64,000 nt of DNA from an uncultured Bifidobacterium sp. GTDB taxonomy: Bacteria; Bacteroidota; Bacteroidia; UKL13-3. The DNA is taken from NCBI GenBank assembly GCA_964442045.1, contig CAYTWI010000002.1, positions 26,509 through 90,508 on the forward strand, in the 5' to 3' direction. The number at the start of each line of letters is the position of its first letter. The first letter of the stretch is position 1. Positions 13,494 through 57,188 of this stretch are shown in pieces. The position numbers and the translations under genes are program-made. A model generated the notes under the pieces. It was not told the origin of the DNA, ran no database searches, and was given only the letters and a program-made list of their open reading frames with translations.

Positions 13494-13624
13494 GTTTAAT
13501 TGTTTTTTAAAGCGTGCAAAAGTATATTTATTTTTCACATTTCATAAAACCTTTTTGCACCAAAAAACAGAACTATTTTAAGGTTATGGAATAAAGCCTC
13601 CAAGCATTATATTCGCGCACTTTT

Positions 13625-15406
13625 ATGATTCAACAAGTATTAAAAAAACATATAGCTGCGGCCCTTTTACACCTGTATAAAATAGAAACAGATGAAAACC
13701 AATTGGTAATTGAAAATACCAAGGCGGAATTTGAGGGCGATTTTACTTTTGTTGTTTTTTCCATTTTAAAACAAACCCAAAAGGGACCAGAACAAACTGC
13801 CAATGAAATTGGTAATTATTTAAAAGAGCATTTAGCTCAATTGGAGTCATTCAATGTCATAAAAGGATTTTTAAACCTAAGCCTGAATAAAGACTTTTGG
13901 TTTGAGTTTATTGAACAAACTTACACCAATACTGCGTTTGGCTTACAACAAAACCCAACCGGTAAAAAAGTTTTAGTAGAGTATTCATCGCCCAATACCA
14001 ACAAACCGCTACATTTAGGCCATATCAGAAACAACCTGTTAGGTTATTCCGTTTCGCAAATACTAAAAGCAAACGGACACCAGGTGAATACCTGTAATTT
14101 GGTAAATGACCGCGGGATTCATATTTGTAAAAGTATGTTAGCCTGGATGCGCGAGGGAAATGGAGAAACCCCACAATCAAGCGGGATAAAAGGCGACCAT
14201 TTGGTTGGCAAATATTATGTAGCCTTCGACAAACAATATAAAAAAGAAATCGAAGAGCTAAAAGCAACAGGACTAAGCAGCGAGGAGGCAGAAAAACAAG
14301 CTCCATCTATTATAGCAGCCCAGCAATTATTACAAAAATGGGAAGCCAACGACAAAGAAACCATTGACACCTGGAAAATGATGAATGGATGGGTTTACGA
14401 AGGTTTTGATGTTACATACAAAAAACTGGGCGTTCAGTTTGATAAATACTACTACGAATCAAATACCTATATTTTAGGAAAAGACATTGTACAGGAAGGC
14501 TTACAAGCCGGTGTGTTTTTCAAAAAAGATGATGGTTCTGTTTGGATAGATTTAACTGCTGATGGATTAGACCAAAAACTATTGCTGCGTGGTGATGGTA
14601 CTTCGGTTTACATAACCCAGGATATTGGCACAGCCGAACTTAAATACCAGGATTTTCATTGCGAAAACTCAGTTTATGTAGTAGGTAACGAGCAGGATTA
14701 CCATTTTAAAGTTTTACAGTTAATCTGTAAAAAATTAAACAAGCCTTTTGCCGATGGTATCTATCACCTTAGCTACGGTATGGTTGAGTTACCCGATGGT
14801 AAAATGAAAAGCCGCGAAGGTACAGTAGTAGATGCAGACGATTTAATTGACGAAATGATTGCTACCGCCACAGAAACCACTCAAGCTTTAGGCAAAACTG
14901 ATAATATACCTGCCGGTGAATTAGAGAAACTGTATGAAACCATTGGTATGGGTGCTTTAAAATACTTTTTATTAAAAGTTGACCCGAAAAAGAAAATGAT
15001 GTTTAACCCTAAAGAATCGATAGATTTCCAGGGAAACACAGGCCCTTTTATTCAATATACCCATGCGCGTATCAAGTCCATTTTACGCAATGCCGGAAGC
15101 ATTGATTATTCAAAATTTGATATCAATAACACTACTTTAAACAAAGCCGAACGTAATTTATTATTTACAGCTTACCAATATCCACAAGCTATTGCAGATG
15201 CAGGTAAAGAAATGAGCCCGGGTATTATTTGTAATTATGCTTACGATTTAGCCAAAGCTTTCAATCATTTTTACCATGAGTGCTCCGTGTTAAAAGAAGA
15301 AAATACAGACCAGCGTAATTTCAGAATTCAACTGGTTCAATTAAGTGCTCATATTATTAAATCAAGCTTTGCTTTGTTAGGAATTGATGTGCCTGAAAAA
15401 ATGTAG
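13625..15406 (+). CDS. argS: Arginine--tRNA ligase
   Basis: VEYSSPNTNKPLHLGHIRN, GKMKSREG, GNTGPFIQYTHARI, GIDVPEKM. Confidence 0.97.
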   Translation: MIQQVLKKHIAAALLHLYKIETDENQLVIENTKAEFEGDFTFVVFSILKQTQKGPEQTANEIGNYLKEHLAQLESFNVIKGFLNLSLNKDFWFEFIEQTYTNTAFGLQQNPTGKKVLVEYSSPNTNKPLHLGHIRNNLLGYSVSQILKANGHQVNTCNLVNDRGIHICKSMLAWMREGNGETPQSSGIKGDHLVGKYYVAFDKQYKKEIEELKATGLSSEEAEKQAPSIIAAQQLLQKWEANDKETIDTWKMMNGWVYEGFDVTYKKLGVQFDKYYYESNTYILGKDIVQEGLQAGVFFKKDDGSVWIDLTADGLDQKLLLRGDGTSVYITQDIGTAELKYQDFHCENSVYVVGNEQDYHFKVLQLICKKLNKPFADGIYHLSYGMVELPDGKMKSREGTVVDADDLIDEMIATATETTQALGKTDNIPAGELEKLYETIGMGALKYFLLKVDPKKKMMFNPKESIDFQGNTGPFIQYTHARIKSILRNAGSIDYSKFDINNTTLNKAERNLLFTAYQYPQAIADAGKEMSPGIICNYAYDLAKAFNHFYHECSVLKEENTDQRNFRIQLVQLSAHIIKSSFALLGIDVPEKM

Positions 15407-15416
15407 TGAAGCAATT

Positions 15417-16688
15417 TTACTCGCTCCATTTCAAGCCTGTAGTATCTTTTGGAGTAGATAAGTACACTTCTTCATTAGCTATTAAACCATTTAAAATAAC
15501 TATGTGAGTTTCGTTGCTGGCAGCTGTTTTTACAGCTTGTTTAACAATAGAGGCGCCTTTCTTTTTGTAAACAAAACTTTTAGGCCCCTCTGCATGCACA
15601 CTTTCAATAGGTACGCTCAATACCTTTTTTAAAGTATTGGTAGAAATAGTATTAGAGGTTGTCATAGCAGGTCTTAAAGAAGTATCGGCTGTTATTACAT
15701 CAATCACCACTTCAAATACCTTGGCTTCGCTATTTGGTTTTTGCTCACCAATACTGGCAACAGATTTTACTATTCCTTTTAATTTTTTACCGGGCTGAGC
15801 ATCCAGTCCAATTTCAACCTGCTGGTTTAATTTTATTTTTTGAATATCTACTTCATTAATATAAGTAACACTTTCCATGGTACGTAAGTCAGGTAAATTA
15901 GCCACCGTTGGATCCCACGTATTAACAGTACTACCCACTATTCTCTTTTTACCATCCCATTCCTTTGCATAAATAACCATTCCGCTTTTTGGTGCTGTAA
16001 TTGTTAATTGTTCCAAAGTAGTAGTTAATTCATTTAACCTGTTTTTAGCCTTAGCTAACTCACTACCTACAATTTGCATTTTAGTTACACTTTGCTCCTT
16101 TTTGGTTTTATAGTTTTGTTTTTTCTGTTCAAGATTTCTAACCGCTTTTTCATATTCAATTTCAGCTTGTCGCAATACAGCAGGCGGCTCGTAAATAGAC
16201 TGGTCTTTGGTTAATTTTCTTTCTTCAACTGCATATTGTAAATTAATCAATTCATCGCGTGCATCGCGCATGGTTAAGGTCGTATCCAATTGTGTTTGCG
16301 TGTACTCCGATTGCTTTTTCTGAACATTTAATTGTTCATCGTTCAGCTTATTCATAACTTCTGTTTTATCTAACTCTGCTACAAATTCACCTTCTTTTAC
16401 CACTGTTCCTTCAGCTATCAAATTACTTATTTTTATTTGCCATATATTTACTTGGCGCAAACTACTTGGAGCCGAAATTTCAGTATAATTTTTAGCCCTT
16501 AATTCACCGGTATTGGTTACCGTAACATTAAAATCACCATCAGAAACTGTGGTTACAATATCATTAGTAGCGGCTTTGGCTACAAACAAAAAATAAACGG
16601 CTAGTACCACTGCTACACATGCAGCTGCTATTATTTTATTTTTATTCTTTTTCAAACCTTTATTTTGTTTAACAGTTATTATAAGCAA
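15417..16688 (-). CDS. Efflux RND/ABC periplasmic adaptor (HlyD/MacA-like membrane fusion protein)
   Basis: N-terminal TM, lipoyl-like half motifs (EGTVVKEGEFVAELD; ITAPKSGMV), long coiled coil, EVDIQKIKLNQ; true start may be TTG 16655. Confidence 0.8.
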   Translation of the reverse strand: MLIITVKQNKGLKKNKNKIIAAACVAVVLAVYFLFVAKAATNDIVTTVSDGDFNVTVTNTGELRAKNYTEISAPSSLRQVNIWQIKISNLIAEGTVVKEGEFVAELDKTEVMNKLNDEQLNVQKKQSEYTQTQLDTTLTMRDARDELINLQYAVEERKLTKDQSIYEPPAVLRQAEIEYEKAVRNLEQKKQNYKTKKEQSVTKMQIVGSELAKAKNRLNELTTTLEQLTITAPKSGMVIYAKEWDGKKRIVGSTVNTWDPTVANLPDLRTMESVTYINEVDIQKIKLNQQVEIGLDAQPGKKLKGIVKSVASIGEQKPNSEAKVFEVVIDVITADTSLRPAMTTSNTISTNTLKKVLSVPIESVHAEGPKSFVYKKKGASIVKQAVKTAASNETHIVILNGLIANEEVYLSTPKDTTGLKWSE

Positions 16689-18654: not shown

Positions 18655-19510
18655 ACTCTTCAATCAATACACCCATTTTACCCATTTGATAATCGCGTAT
18701 GGCCTGCATAATTTCTGTTTGATTGTTCATTACAAACGGGCCATAAGTAGCTATTGGCTCATCAATGGCTTCCATATCAAAAAACAACAAACGGGTCGGT
18801 TCATTAAACTCAATATTAACTTCAGTTGCATCTTTATCAAATACAACAAGGTGCGAACCAAATATGGGCTGCCCGTTCACTAGTATGCTATTGTCAAGGT
18901 TATAAATAGCGTGTTCCCAACCTTTATGCATTTTAAAAATATGTGAAGCTTTACCTGTGCCATGCACTTCCAACATAGTCATCGGGCTTTGCATTTCATT
19001 AAAGCCCTGTACTCCATTATAATCCCCTGCTACCACTTTTATCAATAAATTTTCCTGTTTAATAGTAGGAATAATGTCTTTGTGCAAAGCATAATATTTC
19101 GGTTGCTCCTGCTTAAATTTAGCAGGTGAGTTAATCCATATTTGAATAATTTCCTGTGTACCTCCGGTAGCAGCTAATTCCAACGAAGGGCGTTCGCTGT
19201 GTATAATTCCTTTACCTGCATTCATCCACTGCACTCCACCTGCTTCTACTATAGAGTTATTACCTCTCGAGTCCCTGTGGTTTACATCTCCATCAAAAAT
19301 AAAAGTAACAGGTGCAAAACCTGTATGCGGATGCGGCCCAACACCAACGTTACCTTGTCTTGAACCCGCAGGAATAGTTGACTGGTGATGGTGAATTAAT
19401 AACAAAGGGCCTATATTTTCTATTGATTTATTAGGCAAAGGCTGACGTAACGGATGTCCGCCCATCTCCACCCAATCTGCCGGAATTATTTGTTTAATTA
19501 TATTTTGCAT
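18650..19510 (-). CDS. Pirin family protein
   Basis: GPHPHTGF, HRDSRG, QWMNAGKGIIHSE, YGPFVMN. Confidence 0.93.
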   Translation of the reverse strand: MQNIIKQIIPADWVEMGGHPLRQPLPNKSIENIGPLLLIHHHQSTIPAGSRQGNVGVGPHPHTGFAPVTFIFDGDVNHRDSRGNNSIVEAGGVQWMNAGKGIIHSERPSLELAATGGTQEIIQIWINSPAKFKQEQPKYYALHKDIIPTIKQENLLIKVVAGDYNGVQGFNEMQSPMTMLEVHGTGKASHIFKMHKGWEHAIYNLDNSILVNGQPIFGSHLVVFDKDATEVNIEFNEPTRLLFFDMEAIDEPIATYGPFVMNNQTEIMQAIRDYQMGKMGVLIEEF

Positions 19511-51041: not shown

Positions 51042-51809
51042 ATGTCTGATAAGCCATTAATACTTATTACCAACGATGATGGTATAACTGCTCCGGGTAT
51101 AAAAGCTTTGGTTAATGCAGTAAAACACCTTGGCGAAATTATAATTGTAGCGCCCGATGCACCGCAAAGTGCCATGGGGCATGCAGTAACTATTAGCAAA
51201 CCTTTGCGTTTGGCCAAGACTGATTTGTATGGCGATATTGTTTCGTACCAATGCAGCGGTACGCCTGCTGATTGTGTAAAGCTGGCTGTTGATAAAGTAT
51301 TGCACCGCAAACCAGATTTGTTGCTTTCGGGTATTAACCACGGCAGTAACTCTTCTATTAATGTAATATACAGCGGTACCATGAGTGCTGCAGTAGAAGG
51401 AGCTATTGAAGGTATTCCTTCGGCAGGTATAAGCTTATGCGATTTTGCTTACGAGGCAGACTTTACACTGGCTGCTGAAATAGCTACACAGGTAGCTGAA
51501 AATATTTTAAAAAATGGTTTACCTGCGAGTGTTTTATTAAATGTAAACGTACCTAAAATTACCAGCAGCGAACTACAGGGTATAAAAATTTGCCGCCAGG
51601 CCAATGCCAAATGGGAAGAAGATTTTGATGAGCGTACAGACCCTAACGGACGCAAATACTACTGGCTTACGGGTAAATTTGTAAATAACGATAAAGGAGA
51701 AGATACGGATGAATGGGCACTGGCCAACAACTTTGTTTCCATAGTACCTGTTCAGTTTGATTTAACCGCCCACCATGCTATTGCTAACATTAACCAATGG
51801 ACTTTTTAA
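51042..51809 (+). CDS. surE: 5'/3'-nucleotidase SurE
   Basis: ILITNDDGITAPG, SGTPADCV, SGINHGSN, YSGTMSAA. Confidence 0.97.
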   Translation: MSDKPLILITNDDGITAPGIKALVNAVKHLGEIIIVAPDAPQSAMGHAVTISKPLRLAKTDLYGDIVSYQCSGTPADCVKLAVDKVLHRKPDLLLSGINHGSNSSINVIYSGTMSAAVEGAIEGIPSAGISLCDFAYEADFTLAAEIATQVAENILKNGLPASVLLNVNVPKITSSELQGIKICRQANAKWEEDFDERTDPNGRKYYWLTGKFVNNDKGEDTDEWALANNFVSIVPVQFDLTAHHAIANINQWTF

Positions 51810-51810
51810 C

Positions 51811-52116
51811 ATGCAAAAAATTAAATTCGATCATATATTAATTGGTGTTCTTATAGGTTTATTAGCCCCTTCGCTGGGTATTATTATATTTTACTTCAGT
51901 AAGTTTGAGGGCAGCAGCCTGGAGTTATTCATTACCACTTCGGTACAGGAAAAGCTCTTGTCGCCCCTATTGAGTTTATGTGCTGTTATTAACCTGGCGG
52001 TATTTTATTTAATTATACAGTTTGAAAAATACCAAACTGCAAAAGGCGTTATATTAGCCACTTTCCTATACGGATTAGCAATTGTTTTATTAAAATTTGG
52101 AATTGTAAGTTTGTAA
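51811..52116 (+). CDS. Membrane hypothetical protein
   Basis: Three hydrophobic segments; ATG at 51811 directly after the surE stop is preferred over 51775. Confidence 0.65.
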   Translation: MQKIKFDHILIGVLIGLLAPSLGIIIFYFSKFEGSSLELFITTSVQEKLLSPLLSLCAVINLAVFYLIIQFEKYQTAKGVILATFLYGLAIVLLKFGIVSL

Positions 52117-52126
52117 AATATATTTG
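52096..52126 (+). promoter_or_regulatory. Bacteroidota sigmaA-type promoter for tRNA-Ala
   Basis: -33 TTTG (52096-52099), 19-nt spacer, -7 TATATTTG (52119-52126). Confidence 0.65.
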
Positions 52127-52165
52127 CAGCCCGATTGACATAAAAATGATGGCAATTGGTACTTC

Positions 52166-52241
<76 letters not shown>

Positions 52242-52242
<1 letters not shown>

Positions 52243-52276
52243 ATAATGCCCCGGTTGTTTAGACCGGGGCATTATT
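52242..52276 (+). terminator. Hairpin after tRNA-Ala
   Basis: 14-bp arms AATAATGCCCCGGT / ACCGGGGCATTATT. Confidence 0.65.
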
Positions 52277-52389
52277 ATTTATAGCACAAGGGTAAGCAAA
52301 GCTTACTAAGGTGTGCTATTAATAATAATGCATCCTTTGCGTATGCAAAAGGCATTCATTGTTAGGTTCACCAAACAGGAAAAAGTATT

Positions 52390-52406
52390 AATCCGATATC
52401 CTCCAC
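52390..52406 (+). mobile_element. att-like direct repeat of the tRNA-Ala 3' end
   Basis: AATCCGATATCCTCCAC identical to 52224-52240. Confidence 0.75.
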
Positions 52407-52410
52407 ACTC

Positions 52411-52440
52411 AAAGGTTTCAATAGTACTATTGAAACCTTT
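52411..52440. terminator. Perfect 30-bp palindrome following the att-like repeat
   Basis: AAAGGTTTCAATAGTACTATTGAAACCTTT followed by a T-run. Confidence 0.65.
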
Positions 52441-52583
52441 TTTATTTTATGCTTAATAAGTTGGGTAGTTTGATGACTTATAAAATATTAATACATTGCA
52501 ATATGAAATATATCCACTTAGTTGTGGCACAAATCCATCATATTTTAGGTAGATATGTGCCATTTTATGACACATATATGTAG

Positions 52584-52591
52584 GTTAGGTG
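52584..52591 (+). mobile_element. Integron-like core site (GTTRRRY)
   Basis: GTTAGGTG, 24 bp upstream of the first cassette ATG; reverse complement of CACCTAAC at 56009-56016. Confidence 0.55.
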
Positions 52592-52615
52592 TAAGCAAAA
52601 ATACAAACTGAAAGA

Positions 52616-53524
52616 ATGAATAAGAAATTAAAATGCTATATCTCGACTGACTCTAGTAACGACTTATCAAAAGTTGAAATTTTACTACATAACTTAAATG
52701 TTGACACGAATAATTTCTATGATTTTTCAATAGGTTCGTCTTTTTCAGATTTGATTAAGCGAAAAATTAGAGAATCGGATTTTATACTAGCCTTAATCAC
52801 AAAAAATAATCAAAATGTTTTGTTTGAACTAGGAGTCGCAGAAGCGCTTGGCAAACCAATTTTTTTATTGGTAGATCAAGATTTAAAACTCCCCTTTTTT
52901 CTCGAAGGTAAAATGCATTATCAATTGGATTGGTCAAAAAACACACAACTGTTGGAACTCTCTCTGAAAAATTACATATTAGATATTAGTAATCCCTATA
53001 GACGTTATAAGAAAAAAACGCAAAAAGAAAAACCGAATCTTACAATCGATGAGACGAATAAGGCGCTTGTTAGTCTAAGACAATTTAGGAAAGGTGATTA
53101 TAAAGAATATGATTTAATTAATGTTATAATGGATGTTTTTAAAAAGATAAACGTTCAAGCTGTTTCGGAATTGGCCATAGGAGACAAATCAAGAGTAGAT
53201 ATCGCAATTACAAATGAAGGTTTATCAAGTTACTTTGGAAATCCTTTGCTAATAGAGGTTAAGTATGGAAGAATAGATAAGGAAACAATTGATAGAGCTC
53301 AACAACAACTTCAAAATTACATAAGTAAAACAGATGCTAATTTTGGAATTTTGCTCTATTTCGACAAAAATGATAGACGATTTAATTTAGACACTCCCAG
53401 ATTACCAAACATATTAATGTTTGACGTTGAAGACTTTGTTCAAGGTATTTCATCTGAGGGGTTTGAAAATTTCTTAATAAAAAAGAGAAATGAGTATGTA
53501 CATACTTTAAATAATCTAAGTTAG
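52616..53524 (+). CDS. NDT/TIR-like domain fused to PD-(D/E)xK restriction-endonuclease-like domain
   Basis: N-term IRESDFILALIT..NQNVLFELGVAEALGKPIFLL; C-term SRVDIAI...LLIEVKYG...AQQQLQNY...FGILLY. Confidence 0.75.
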   Translation: MNKKLKCYISTDSSNDLSKVEILLHNLNVDTNNFYDFSIGSSFSDLIKRKIRESDFILALITKNNQNVLFELGVAEALGKPIFLLVDQDLKLPFFLEGKMHYQLDWSKNTQLLELSLKNYILDISNPYRRYKKKTQKEKPNLTIDETNKALVSLRQFRKGDYKEYDLINVIMDVFKKINVQAVSELAIGDKSRVDIAITNEGLSSYFGNPLLIEVKYGRIDKETIDRAQQQLQNYISKTDANFGILLYFDKNDRRFNLDTPRLPNILMFDVEDFVQGISSEGFENFLIKKRNEYVHTLNNLS

Positions 53525-53525
53525 T

Positions 53526-54059
53526 ATGCCTAAATATAGCCAAACAAAAATAAGGCAGCTACTAAATCAATCTGATGCTGGAAATACTCATGTGAAAGGA
53601 AGAGTTTTTGAAGATTTAGTACTTTATTTATTTGAAAAATTCAATGGTGTTCGTTTAGCAGATAGAAATGTATTAGATGCAACAGGTTCTCAAGAAATAG
53701 ATTTAGCGCTTTGGAACAATAGGGTTATTGGGCCATTTGATATCCTTGACCCAATAGTAATTTGCGAATGTAAAAATGAAGTTCCCCCTTTAAGTAGCGC
53801 AAAAGTCCGTGAATTTGTACATAAGTTAAGGACAAGGGGGGCGAAATCAGGAATCCTTGTGTCATCTAGCGGTATTGCTGGTCAATTAAATGGTTACAGA
53901 TATGCAAACTCTGTAATAATGGATGCTTTGTCCATTGATGGTATTAAAATAATTGCTATCGATAGAGACGACATTTTATCATACGCGAACACTAATGATA
54001 TGTTTAATGATATTACAGAAAAATATTTGAAATTGACAATTAGAAGAACGATGGATTAA
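53526..54059 (+). CDS. Mrr-like (type IV-like) restriction endonuclease domain protein
   Basis: KGRVFEDLV, QEIDLAL, ICECKN, KVREF..KL, GILVSSSG. Confidence 0.8.
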   Translation: MPKYSQTKIRQLLNQSDAGNTHVKGRVFEDLVLYLFEKFNGVRLADRNVLDATGSQEIDLALWNNRVIGPFDILDPIVICECKNEVPPLSSAKVREFVHKLRTRGAKSGILVSSSGIAGQLNGYRYANSVIMDALSIDGIKIIAIDRDDILSYANTNDMFNDITEKYLKLTIRRTMD

Positions 54060-54089
54060 GCTATTTCATGACAAATTAAGAACAAAAAT

Positions 54090-56000
54090 ATGAGCACAAA
54101 ACAAATAGCACTTTTTGATGATAGATTTTTAGAATCATTTGTTGGAAAAGGAATTATCTCCGATTCTAAAATTGCAATCATTGAGCTAATAGCAAACTCA
54201 TGGGATGCTGCAGCAACAAAGGTTGAAATAAAGTGGCCATTAGAAGACGGGGACAATTTTTCAATTATTGACAATGGTCACGGAATGACCGAATCACAAT
54301 TTAATAAAAGATTTCGAACTTTAGCTTATGATAGAAACAAAGAGCAGGGTGGATATGCAGAGGTACCACAAGACCACAAATCACTAATTGGGAAAAGACC
54401 AACTTTCGGTAGAAATGGTAAAGGTAGATTATCTGGTTTTGCTTTCGGGGAATTTTTCCAAGTGAAAAGCTGGAGAGATACAAAGCAAATACATTATAAA
54501 GTATTTGCTGACAATACTAATATCTTAGCGTTTGAAAAATTAGGTGAAGAAAAAAAGGAACATCACGGAACAGAAATATTCGTTAATAATGCAATCAAAC
54601 CAAGTACTAGTTTTGATCAAATAAAAATTGAAATTGGAATGCGATTTATGACGGATCCTCATTTTGAAGTAATCGTTAACAATGAAAAAATTACATTTTT
54701 GGACATACCAGAAGAAAATATCAATAACATCGAAGTTGAAATTGATGGCATTGGAAAAATACCTATTACAGTAATTGATGTTAAAGGAACAGATAAGACA
54801 ACTCATCAACATGGTATTGCTTGGCATGTAAAAAACAGACTCGTTGGCGAATGTACTTGGAAAGGTAGTGGAAACGAACATTTGATTGATGGTAGAAGAA
54901 TTGCCGCAAAACGATATATTTTTATAGTAAAAGCAGACTGTTTAGAAAATGCTGTTTCTCCGGATTGGACAACATTTTTTCAAACAGACGAAAAATTCAA
55001 GAAGGTATTTCCTGCAGTTCAAGAAAAAATCAAAGATTATATTTTAGAACTTTACAAGGAAAATAGAGAAACAACATTTAAAGAAATTGAGGAAATTACC
55101 AAACCGATATTGAAAAACATTGGACTTGTTGGTCGAGAGAAATGGGAAACATTTATAACCAATGTTCAAGAAGAATGTCCTTCAATTACTCAAAATGATT
55201 TAGAAAAGGTTGCTAAACTTTTAGCTAATCTTGAACAAAGCGAATCAAAATATAACCTAATTGCCATATTGTCTAATTCAACATCAGAGGAATTAGAAAG
55301 TTTGAATACTGTTTTAAAAAAATGGAATATAAATTTAGCAAAAGTTGTACTTGACGAGGTAGAATATAGAATGAGACTAATTGAAAAATTACAAAGTAGA
55401 GTACTGACTAATTTAACAGACGAAGTTCATGATTTACAACCTTTATTTCACAGAGGTTTATGGATATTTGGTCCTGAGTATGAAACAATCGAATACACAT
55501 CAAATGTTGGTATGACAAAGGTTATACAAGATTTATTTGGAAAAGAAATAAAGGGTACGCGTATAAGACCTGACTTTGCAATCTTGAAAGATAGTTCGGT
55601 TGGTCTTTACAGTTTTCCAAAATATGATGACGAAGGAGGGGAAATAGGAATTGATAGGCTAACAATTGTTGAGCTTAAAAAGCCAGGAGTGCCGCTTGGA
55701 CTTGATGAGGTAAATCAATCCTGGAAATATGTTAGTGAATTATTAAATAAGGGATTAATTAAAAACTATTCTAAGGTGACATGTTTTGTTTTAGGTTCTG
55801 AGCTAGTGCCTTATGAAACGGAGAAGACAACGAAAATGAATGGCAATGTTATTATTCAGCCACTAGCCTACGATACCATTATGAGACGTGCAAAGAGCCG
55901 CCTTCTAAACTTGTTTGACAAGGTTAAGACTGCGCCATACTTAGAAGACACAAGAATTAAAGAATATTTGCGTGAAAAGGAACAGTCAGAATTATTTTAA
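54090..56000 (+). CDS. GHKL (HATPase_c/MORC-like) ATPase fused to C-terminal PD-(D/E)xK nuclease (Shedu/DUF4263-like)
   Basis: AIIELIANSWDA, DNGHGM, GRNGKGR, HGTEI; C-term LQPLFHRGLWIFGPEY, RPDF, IVELKKP, NQSWKY. Confidence 0.8.
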   Translation: MSTKQIALFDDRFLESFVGKGIISDSKIAIIELIANSWDAAATKVEIKWPLEDGDNFSIIDNGHGMTESQFNKRFRTLAYDRNKEQGGYAEVPQDHKSLIGKRPTFGRNGKGRLSGFAFGEFFQVKSWRDTKQIHYKVFADNTNILAFEKLGEEKKEHHGTEIFVNNAIKPSTSFDQIKIEIGMRFMTDPHFEVIVNNEKITFLDIPEENINNIEVEIDGIGKIPITVIDVKGTDKTTHQHGIAWHVKNRLVGECTWKGSGNEHLIDGRRIAAKRYIFIVKADCLENAVSPDWTTFFQTDEKFKKVFPAVQEKIKDYILELYKENRETTFKEIEEITKPILKNIGLVGREKWETFITNVQEECPSITQNDLEKVAKLLANLEQSESKYNLIAILSNSTSEELESLNTVLKKWNINLAKVVLDEVEYRMRLIEKLQSRVLTNLTDEVHDLQPLFHRGLWIFGPEYETIEYTSNVGMTKVIQDLFGKEIKGTRIRPDFAILKDSSVGLYSFPKYDDEGGEIGIDRLTIVELKKPGVPLGLDEVNQSWKYVSELLNKGLIKNYSKVTCFVLGSELVPYETEKTTKMNGNVIIQPLAYDTIMRRAKSRLLNLFDKVKTAPYLEDTRIKEYLREKEQSELF

Positions 56001-56003
56001 TTT

Positions 56004-56064
56004 GCCAGCACCTAACAGCAACTACAAGAAATTGGCGCTTCAGTGGTTAAATGAAGTTTTGTGC
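56004..56064 (+). mobile_element. Truncated attC-like site (inverse core RYYYAAC plus left arm)
   Basis: GCCAGCACCTAACAGCAACTACAAGAAATTGGCG...GTGGTTAAATGAAGTTTTGTGC starting 4 bp after the stop codon; complementary right arm not found. Confidence 0.55.
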
Positions 56065-56097
56065 CTTATACCCACCCTTCTCAAGCCTCACACAAAC

Positions 56098-56129
56098 AAA
56101 AAGCCCTTGTAGTACTACAAGGGCTTTTT
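56098..56129. terminator. Perfect 32-bp palindrome / bidirectional terminator
   Basis: AAAAAGCCCTTGTAGTACTACAAGGGCTTTTT between convergent genes. Confidence 0.75.
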
Positions 56130-56156
56130 TGTTAATTAATTACTACAATCATATTC

Positions 56157-56858
56157 TTAAGGTGTAACAGGCGGTTCTTCCGAAGGACTTGGGTTCTCGT
56201 TATCAACCTCCAACAAACTAAAGTTAAAGTAACTGTTAAAAGCAGCTTCGTTACCTATGGTACGGGCAGCTATAAGCAGTACACAAGTGGTTAAATGCTC
56301 GGTTAATGCTTTTCGGTTTTGTTGCATTTCGGTTTGTGCCGTTTTTTTGCTGGATTTAGATGATACCTGTGTATCCCTTGCATCTACATAAGCGGTTTGT
56401 AATGTACCCAAAGTGCGCACAAAGTCGGTTGATAAGAGGGCTTTGTATTTGTCGGCAGTGGCACTGTACCTGAATAGCAATACTTTTATGCCCTCTACCG
56501 TAGCACCATAATACTCCCGGAGCCCCTGCGGGTAAAACTCGATGTAAATGGGTGTGTTTTTACCAAACTTAGATTTAATGGCACCTTCTTCGCGCGAAAT
56601 AAATTCTAAAATGGCATCGTAAGCATCTTGTCGGCTAAGGGTACCACCCTTTTGTATGGCACTGCTAATGGCCAGCGTACCAAAGGTGTTTACAAAGGCC
56701 TCGTGTAAATCAATCAGCAGCGTTTTATCGGCTGCGGGTAATAAGGAGTTTTGCATGCTGCTTAATCGGCTAATTAAGTCGGTAGCAAACAGGTTGAGTT
56801 CGTTTCGGCTAAAGTTGTTACTGCCGAATAAATTTCTGGTGAATCGTGCGTAATTCAT
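56157..56858 (-). CDS. Hypothetical protein (predicted helical)
   Basis: 233-aa ORF, visibly more GC-rich than neighbours; C-terminal YFNFSLL plus an acidic/Pro tail. Confidence 0.75.
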   Translation of the reverse strand: MNYARFTRNLFGSNNFSRNELNLFATDLISRLSSMQNSLLPAADKTLLIDLHEAFVNTFGTLAISSAIQKGGTLSRQDAYDAILEFISREEGAIKSKFGKNTPIYIEFYPQGLREYYGATVEGIKVLLFRYSATADKYKALLSTDFVRTLGTLQTAYVDARDTQVSSKSSKKTAQTEMQQNRKALTEHLTTCVLLIAARTIGNEAAFNSYFNFSLLEVDNENPSPSEEPPVTP

Positions 56859-56894
56859 ATCGGTAAGTTTTTTAGTAACTAAACGTAGGCTGAA

Positions 56895-57188
56895 TTATTT
56901 TTAGTATACCCTAAAAACAGAAAGTGCATGTAAAAATTATTTTACATACTCCCTCAAAAATGAGGGCGTATATAAAAACTATTTTTAGTACACCATAGAA
57001 AATGAGGGACTATGAAAAAACTATTTTACCTACTCCCTCAAAAACGAGGGAGTATATAAAAACTATTTTTAGTACACCCTAAAAATTAGAGGTGCATATA
57101 AAACATGTTTTGGGTACATGTTAGAAACTGAACATATAGTTAAAACATGTTTTTGGTATAGTCCCAAAATGCGGAATGCCGGTAAAAA
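56895..57188. repeat. Array of 7 x 42-bp imperfect palindromic units
   Basis: Units start at 56895, 56937, 56979, 57021, 57063, 57105, 57147; units 2 and 4 share 38/42 nt; stops in all six frames. Confidence 0.85.

Follow-up and report, generated by a model that had tools for sequence, protein, structure and literature searches.

How three genes, A, B and C, whose combination is most likely an anti-phage defence module, came to lie as a lone operon among the housekeeping genes of a Bacteroidota chromosome, and how they became fixed there, is the question raised by the stretch of DNA analysed here (64,000 nucleotides (nt) of contig CAYTWI010000002.1; hereafter the window). An earlier note, made from the letters of the window only, had proposed that the operon is packaged like an integron gene cassette, captured by an integron-like system and then fixed by truncation of its attC site. 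From comparison with related loci in other genomes (given as L with a number), window 52584-56064 is very probably a stranded (fossil) gene cassette, and the recombination system to which it belongs, integron-like but non-IntI, is one that occurs in Bacteroidota and their phages. The positions of all features are collected in Table 1.

Limits of the cassette block

The evidence that defines the block comes from L082, the locus of assembly GCA_964529175.1 in which a homologue of gene C, 99% identical in protein, is preceded by the same genes A and B. Comparison of the whole window with L082 by blastn gave one high-scoring segment pair, in which window 52584-56064 corresponds to L082 8495-11975 (3481 nt, 96.35% identity), and on both sides of this block the flanks of the two loci are unrelated. 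The limits of the segment pair put the block start at the G of GTTAGGTG (52584) and the block end at 56064. Both of the end-points claimed for a cassette in the earlier note are thereby recovered, and synteny of the homologous operon is lost precisely at G|TTAG. With its canonical 5' core, the block forms a discrete mobile unit, which stands in differing contexts in the window and in L082, and gene C cassettes are found in other contexts again in L084, L088 and L095.

In L082, the block sits between two complete attC-like imperfect palindromes of ~135 nt. Its upstream flank is the right arm of another palindromic site, ending in ...CTGCAAAAC|GTTAGC (in a longer stretch, ...CCCGCCCATCGCCAATCTGCAAAAC|GTTAGC), and the G at the block start closes this preceding site. 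On the other side, the 3' arm runs on as ...GACAGTTTTGTGCTCCGAAATCGCCAACTTCTTGTAGCTGCAAACC GTTATC, the complement of the arm AGCACCTACAAGAAATTGGCG that is also present in the window. Because the L082 arm continues into a complete site, the window carries the left half of a ~135-nt palindrome without the right half; the complete 3' imperfect-palindrome site (R''-L''...L'-R') that is missing here is present in the 96%-identical copy.

The core GTTAGGTG is located 24 nt upstream of the ATG at 52616 and its reverse complement CACCTAAC 8 nt past the TAA at 55998-56000, with 5' core and 3' R'' box of the window complementary over 8/8 nt. These words, together with TGGCACA and TGTGCCA to their left, lie where they had been reported. 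An ordinary operon might have acquired such an inverted 8-mer pair fortuitously, for some inverted 8-mer is common to both intergenic regions (373 nt upstream, 156 nt downstream) in 69% of shuffles, and the plus strand of the window holds 77 GTTRRRY and 78 RYYYAAC words; a shared inverted 8-mer containing GTTRRRY is found in 0.56% of shuffles, before correction for looking elsewhere. The pair alone is weak evidence, and the comparison with other genomes decides: the block limits in L082 coincide with the 8-mer positions and the half site fits the family model described below, which refutes chance and leaves it practically no credence.

Table 1. Positions of the features discussed; window coordinates unless a locus is given
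Feature	Position	Strand	Remarks
Cassette block	52584..56064	+	5' core, genes A-B-C, left half of 3' site; L082 blastn segment pair
5' cassette end G|TTAGGTG, R'-derived core	52584..52591	+	exact reverse complement of 56009-56016
Left half of attC-like site	56008..56064	+	R'' (CACC)TAAC 56009-56016, L'' arm 56018-56037, central-loop start; L' arm and R' absent
attI-like junction (plausible) ACATATATGTAG	52572..52583	+	directly 5' of core; ACATATA(N3-6)|GTTA pattern
TGGCACA/TGTGCCA inverted pair	52525-52531 / 52556-52562	.	no support for any role
Gene A	52616..53524	+	302 aa; weak TIR / nucleoside 2-deoxyribosyltransferase-like N-terminal region (Pfam, PADLOC)
Gene B	53526..54059	+	177 aa; Mrr-type PD-(D/E)xK nuclease domain (Pfam Mrr_cat 26.5 bits, cut-off 21)
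Gene C	54090..56000	+	636 aa; GHKL-type ATPase (HATPase_c_3; Pfam 65.7 bits)
tRNA-Ala(GGC)	52166..52242	+	left landmark of locus
Direct repeat of tRNA 3' end	52390..52407	+	17/18 nt; then terminator 52411-52440; 0.02 chance matches expected
Bidirectional intrinsic terminator, shared with convergent orf233	56098..56129	.	host sequence, outside cassette; homologous to L096 10723-10773 beside orf233 orthologue
Recombinase and array spans	L173 944-5565; L141 374-3941; L135 1722-6136; L124 8388-10120; L169 109-1613		phage-like IMG/VR contigs

Site family and the half site of the window

The sites of L082, L084 and L096 yielded the scan pattern AACAGCAC N85-115 CTGCAAAMCGTTA, which matched at least 120 stretches of IMG/VR contigs, with a modal site length of 125-126 nt. 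Members of the family have the form TAAC-AGCAC...stem...CTGCAAAMC-GTTA, an imperfect palindrome of about 125-136 nt, and the cassettes follow one another in same-strand arrays as G|TTAxxxxx, cargo and then xxxxxTAAC-A-GCAC[stem]...loop...[stem]CTGCAAAMC-GTTA. Among 75 aligned sites, the basis of a covariance model of 136 positions (R2), 13/16 stem pairs have compensatory changes; paired cells amount to 96.0%, compared to 70.7% in column shuffles (0/500 reach the observed value) and to 25-38% when the partners are slid. The site family is structured and its stem strongly covarying.

Sites of this general kind are laid out at length in Gramella sp. Hel_I_59 (L095; VFME01000001.1 2196009-2217919), where at least 20 same-strand genes are each followed by a ~130-nt repeat. 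In an alignment of twenty of the sites, terminal AAC and GTT pair with each other, the spacer is unpaired and asymmetric, and the stems contain bulged bases and show compensatory changes. In the cassettes of this array, the 9-10 nt that start with the 5' GTT and the 9-10 nt up to the 3' AAC are reverse complements of each other, which is the signature expected when a circular cassette has been opened at the G|TT of its own folded site. Of the 40 cassettes of L095 and the phage arrays with a detected site on each side, 32 have ends that are perfect reverse complements over at least 8 nt, several of the low values being due to missed sites or crude end-finding; with its 8 nt the window shares what had been taken from the outset as a cassette hallmark. 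A model from the Gramella sites (R1) matches Gramella sites only, which makes the site sequence lineage-specific, a trait shared with sedentary chromosomal integrons. The Gramella array runs past both ends of the locus (L095 1-21911), and its cargo includes GAPS4 (two genes), Abi_alpha, DpnII/MboI-like and SMC_N-like genes.

Applied to window 55900-56064, R2 recovers the first 57 of its 136 positions in 56008-56064, a match truncated on the 3' side (28.1 bits, E 2.2e-6), and the half site can be aligned with the complete sites of L082 and L084 as far as 56064. Detection needed a search stretch ending at 56064, the half site being missed by the full-length R2 search, which with filters off gave no complete site of the family in the 64-kb window (best E 0.94). 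The earlier note is borne out in both of its statements on the 3' end, that the right half of the site is missing and that the arm at 56004-56064 has attC-like homologues, complete sites of ~135 nt being placed after gene C in L082 and in L084. The bottom strands of two complete L082 sites fold into a hairpin closed by TAAC/GTTA (z about -2.6); the single-stranded fold of window 56008-56143 contains no site hairpin. The lead to the Flavo-1 RNA had to be given up, for Rfam, Flavo-1 (RF01705) included, has no match in window 51500-57000 at E<=10 and none at the sites of L082, L084, L087, L088 and L095 at E<=1.

Palindromes of ~130 nt that are abundant and intergenic could alternatively be self-spreading repeats, similar to repetitive extragenic palindromes or miniature inverted-repeat transposable elements, or else terminators, and the window would then have an ordinary defence-island operon with half a repeat behind it. 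Gene C at 59% identity in a site-free defence island of Chitinophaga pinensis would agree with that. We consider it improbable, given that gene and site travel as a unit with exact ends (the 3.48-kb block in two contexts, gene C plus its 3' site in L084 and L082), that orientation within the arrays is strictly uniform, with a divergent recombinase at their head, and that the reverse-complementary ends of the 32 cassettes are not predicted by independent repeat insertion. Still less probable is an assembly artefact, in which the contig would be chimeric at 56064 within a repeat and the real site complete. Short-read contigs do break inside sites, as L083 ends at the equivalent of window 56042, and L081 ends in the tRNA; however, both flanks of the cassette are syntenic with one and the same locus, L096 (tRNA-proximal element on the left, terminator and orf233 on the right), and a chimera would need to have found the correct neighbours.

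Recombinases, left junction and proposed mechanism

With IntI1, XerD and the integrase of L087 as queries, a phmmer search was made of the window and of loci L082-L176, covering all open reading frames (ORFs) of 120 aa or more. Five tyrosine recombinases were found, all on IMG/VR contigs. None is present in the window, and the earlier remark that no integrase is nearby holds for its entire 64 kb. In 5/5 phage loci, the recombinase gene is upstream of the sites on the opposite strand and adjoins an array of 2-10 of them (10 in L173, 7 in L135, 6 in L141), which is the layout of intI, attI and array. Most ORFs of the phage arrays are antisense to the sites and co-directional with the recombinase gene; those of the bacterial arrays and of the window are sense. 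The five proteins are short and Xer-like (267-287 aa, Phage_int_SAM_4 and Phage_integrase domains). Judging from the neighbouring genes (HNH endonuclease, DnaB-like helicase, NinB and RusA; or RNA ligase, phosphoesterase and a kinase-like ATPase), the contigs that bear them appear phage-like. The recombinase family comprises 2908 members at E<=1e-30; among the 120 listed, the longest contigs are all <81 kb, and one is named uncultured Caudovirales phage.

Among Polaribacter phages Freya_1 to Freya_10 (MT732463-MT732472; L217), the stretch of small hypothetical ORFs upstream of the integrase varies, the differences amounting to 0 to ~4 kb. The integrase shares 31% identity with the L141 recombinase, and an HNH endonuclease comes next, a gene layout that matches L141. 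As cultured carriers of cassettes these phages were rejected, since R2 gives no convincing site in them (best E 0.043).

At four of the five recombinase-proximal junctions (L173, L141, L124, L169) the sequence reads ACATATA(N3-6)|GTTA. Over both strands of the window this pattern has one match, ACATATATGTAG|GTTAGG at 52572-52587, and because this sole match falls at the left junction, an attI-like insertion point is plausible there. Of the attI-like left side in the earlier note, what survives are the last 12 nt before the core; the TGGCACA/TGTGCCA pair, which had been offered as the attI feature, is not conserved and was rejected in that role for want of a counterpart at any related junction.

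By analogy with integrons, the cassettes would be excised and inserted by a tyrosine recombinase that cuts the G|TT of a folded single-stranded site. In the window, the folded site of the cassette would have recombined at G|TT, bringing the cassette in at ACATATATGTAG|GTTAGG, at a place on the chromosome that has tRNA-Ala on one side and orf233 on the other. Subsequently L', R' and any downstream cassettes would have been lost by a deletion that extended from the site's loop to within 29 nt of the orf233 terminator. As a site without its second arm can no longer fold, the cassette would have been immobilised. We infer the order of events, insertion and then deletion, from this arrangement.

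Several points weigh against the fossil-cassette reading. The identity of 96% to L082 is by itself no proof of recent transfer, the sites of L082 number only 2-3, the right junction at 56064 is without recognisable mechanism, and the attI-like motif is a short one of high AT content. By the phmmer search, no recombinase is present in the bacterial array loci L082, L088, L095 and L096 (~20 kb each). With their best NCBIfam matches, the five phage recombinases reach 168-198 bits for XerA/'integron integrase' NF040815 (cut-off 220) and 145-176 bits, split over two stretches, for TIGR02249 (cut-off 265); in alignment with IntI1 and XerD, they lack the ~40-50 aa segment specific to IntI1. By this defining feature of the IntI family, they are not IntI. 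Recombination of folded attC is considered to require the IntI-specific insertion (PMC8138268, PMC7790495), and because the recombinases here are without the insertion that binds the extrahelical bases of attC, the mechanistic analogy with integrons is an inferred one. The catalytic mechanism suggested for the site family is likewise an analogy, and the defence function of the cargo is predicted from weak domain matches and context.

What is shared with classical integrons is considerable all the same: one-way arrays of promoterless cassettes, the G|TT boundary, complementary cassette ends, palindromes with outer boxes ...YAAC / GTTR..., an asymmetric unpaired R-L spacer, sites uniform within a genome and, in the five recombinase-bearing phage loci though not in the window, a divergent tyrosine recombinase beside the first cassette. 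The differences are in the compact Xer-like recombinase, with no IntI insertion and a TIGR02249 score under the cut-off, in the stem irregularities, which in the main family are mostly 1x1 mismatches and not bulged bases, and in the antisense orientation of most phage-array ORFs. The element is not a classical integron, seeing that the recombinase fails the IntI test and Rfam has no match. Capture by an integron-like system, as proposed earlier, is upheld in this restricted sense, and the reading given in the earlier note is in the main correct. L082, L095 and L096 resemble clusters of attC sites lacking integron integrases (CALINs) or solitary attC sites in having sites with no recombinase beside them, and would qualify as CALINs (at least 2 attC, no integrase nearby); the window, with one half site and 0 complete sites, is a remnant below that definition. 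In the enzyme there is a likeness to Xer/dif and the integrative mobile elements exploiting Xer (CTX phage with its folded single-stranded attP; PMC8138268), where a short 'simple' Xer-type recombinase is employed, presumably as here on a folded hairpin; the present system differs in having numerous cassettes and their sites in arrays, with a dedicated recombinase gene alongside, and in having no dif-like 28-bp site.

Qi et al. 2023 (PMC9892861) reported attC sites and CALINs in phage genomes, including that of Polaribacter phage P12002L, which were recombined with IntI1. There is the common element of cassette-type sites on phages of Flavobacteriia, with phages proposed for cassette exchange; that study used IntegronFinder and HattCI, and neither the present site family nor an insertion-less recombinase beside arrays is described there. 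Anti-phage systems have been reported in integron cassettes, with cassette size argued to be a constraint (bioRxiv 10.1101/2024.07.02.601686). Defence cargo is common to both cases; those integrons are of Vibrio and Pseudomonadota, and the unit here has three genes and ~3.55 kb. The same work counts Bacteroidota among the clades in which no integrons had previously been found; IntegronFinder 2.0 detected only In0 elements and one complete integron, in Salinibacter, in the Bacteroidetes (PMC9024848), and another source lists Bacteroidota among the phyla with integrons (PMC8618304). In the literature searched, we found no description of the present site family or of an insertion-less recombinase heading arrays; coverage was incomplete and an earlier description is possible.

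Locus, cargo and biological meaning

The window locus appears to be a shrunken version of a cassette array, because L096 (GCA_040384165.1) holds a multi-cassette array between the same landmarks. On one side L096 has an orf233 orthologue (83% identical), accompanied by the terminator and the 42-nt repeats known from the window; at the other end stand four tandem copies of the hairpin element found behind tRNA-Ala in the window. The ~8 kb separating these landmarks hold same-strand genes, among them GmrSD and an FRG-domain gene, and three or more sites of the window's family; the first-cassette junctions read ...TTATATACAA|GTTAGC. The neighbours of the operon in the window are housekeeping genes, upstream those for Suf proteins, DPP-IV, SurE and tRNA-Ala(GGC), downstream orf233 (a conserved hypothetical gene on the minus strand) and the carotenoid genes crtB and crtI.

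The position next to a tRNA gene suggests another route of delivery, namely that the cassette and its attI-like junction came inside a larger element integrated at tRNA-Ala, for example a prophage with recombinase and array, which decayed to the present 3.9 kb, the locus never having had a resident array. The 18-nt direct repeat of the tRNA 3' end would fit, as would the finding of recombinase-bearing arrays on phage-like contigs only, the size of the recombinase family together with the contigs of <81 kb among its members listed, and the lower GC content of the operon (about 0.29-0.35, neighbours 0.34-0.43). The repeats (52224-52241 and 52390-52407), however, enclose only the ~150-nt hairpin element and not the operon, no third copy of the tRNA 3' end is found right of the operon at up to 3 mismatches, the array of L096 at the same locus has no phage genes in the 20 kb seen, and the segment shared with L082 begins at GTTAGG and not at the tRNA repeat. 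We regard this delivery route as rather unlikely; it is compatible with the cassette reading, from which it differs in the manner of arrival only. The likeness to tRNA-linked islands is confined to the cassette lying downstream of tRNA-Ala and the duplicated tRNA 3' end. In what the repeats bracket, in the lack of a further copy and in the absence of an integrase, the locus departs from a tRNA-integrated island.

The same region has repeated sequences of several kinds. The hairpin-rich element of ~150 nt (window 52243-52394) comes directly after tRNA-Ala, flanked by the 18-nt repeat of the tRNA 3' end, and its four copies in L096 (18997-19508) are of ~115 nt each and stand in tandem next to the decayed 3' end of a tRNA. 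The ~150-nt element is possibly an att remnant, or else a small element that targets tRNA genes. Upstream of orf233, window 56893-57144 consists of tandem 42-nt units with internal hairpins, conserved in L096 (9623-9928), and an array of different sequence and the same 42-nt period is found within the cassette region of L082 (6658-7362). The terminators at 52411-52440 and 56098-56129, which flank the cassette region, are of similar design and have an identical TAGTACTA loop; the L096 array contains the left one at two places (15052-15132, 15955-16004). In L096, a repeated module ...CAACTTGGATATGTAAATAAATAAAATACTTTTGT... (~13528-13654, 14924-15202, 18787-18990) precedes several cassettes or genes; its TAnnTTTG word, like the Bacteroidota -7 promoter box, suggests that cassettes may carry their own promoters. 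With SurE as the anchor in one-genome-per-species contigs, the best among the matches listed is 78% identical, the neighbourhood is not conserved and no empty site was found; exact-protein matches to SurE, orf233 and gene C gave only one 3.7-kb contig (L081), which ends within the tRNA. Freshwater metagenome-assembled genomes titled 'Chitinophaga pinensis' (L001, L009, L016, L020) have SurE 68-78% identical to that of the window; they are low-GC Bacteroidota and probably mislabelled.

As regards the cargo, gene A matches Pfam Nuc_deoxyrib_tr (25.5 bits) and TIR_2 (19.3 bits), both under the gathering score, and weakly the PADLOC TIR effector (E 0.0035); gene B has no PADLOC match, and the N-terminus of gene C matches the PADLOC model of a type II restriction endonuclease (E 1.9e-14). 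With PADLOC, partial matches only were obtained and no system is matched as a whole, and PDB sequence searches with A, B and C gave no useful relative. Gene C has hundreds of homologues in Bacteroidota, and homologues of the cargo are found in defence islands beside Gabija-like genes, GmrSD and DarTG. The plain defence island of Chitinophaga pinensis, which has no cassette sites (L218; CP001699.1 5268592-5290514), has gene C followed 22 nt on by a 400-aa gene, together with OLD-TOPRIM/UvrD (Gabija-like) genes, GmrSD and DUF4238.

Gene C homologues 78-86% identical are the sole gene of their cassette in L084, L088 and L095, where similarity to the window begins 3 nt upstream of the gene C ATG and the leaders, GTTRGGCACAAGC..., resemble the window leader GTTAGGTGTAAGC.... 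The Arenibacter locus L087 again has gene C without A and B; its leader is also of this kind, a repeat of another type lies upstream of the gene, and an unrelated integrase is close by. The three-gene cassette probably arose by insertion of A and B behind the leader of a C cassette, ahead of gene C itself, a course favoured because the 5' end of the cassette pairs with the R'' of the site belonging to C and resembles the C-only leaders. Fusion of an A-B cassette with a C cassette, the site in the middle having been lost, we judge from the same sequence features to be less likely than such an insertion. With about 3.55 kb in L082, the A-B-C cassette is the largest measured here, the 40 others having 130-2217 nt, in keeping with the earlier description of a multi-gene cassette of unusual size.

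Lastly, the cassette reading provides an explanation for a lone three-gene defence operon among housekeeping genes and for its fixation there. The element of the window is a fossil, and the interest lies in the system behind it. Integrons are regarded as essentially absent from Bacteroidota, and arrays with every sequence hallmark of cassettes are found here in Gramella, in uncultured Bacteroidota and, in large numbers and beside a recombinase without the IntI insertion, on phage contigs. We put forward, tentatively and with rather less than even confidence, that Bacteroidota and their tailed phages may share an abundant, undescribed integron-like class, in which a compact Xer-like recombinase without the IntI insertion would shuffle cassettes with ~125-136-nt hairpin sites through a common phage and chromosomal pool that includes defence genes, the window holding a fossil of it in the form of a three-gene defence cassette that could no longer move once half its site was gone. 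If the recombinase works as the layout suggests, the I2 helix would have been dispensable for the origin or the persistence of cassette recombination at hairpin sites. The standard integron finders would be overlooking a large class of cassettes, and a direct route between phage and host would exist for the exchange of defence and counter-defence genes in a major environmental phylum.

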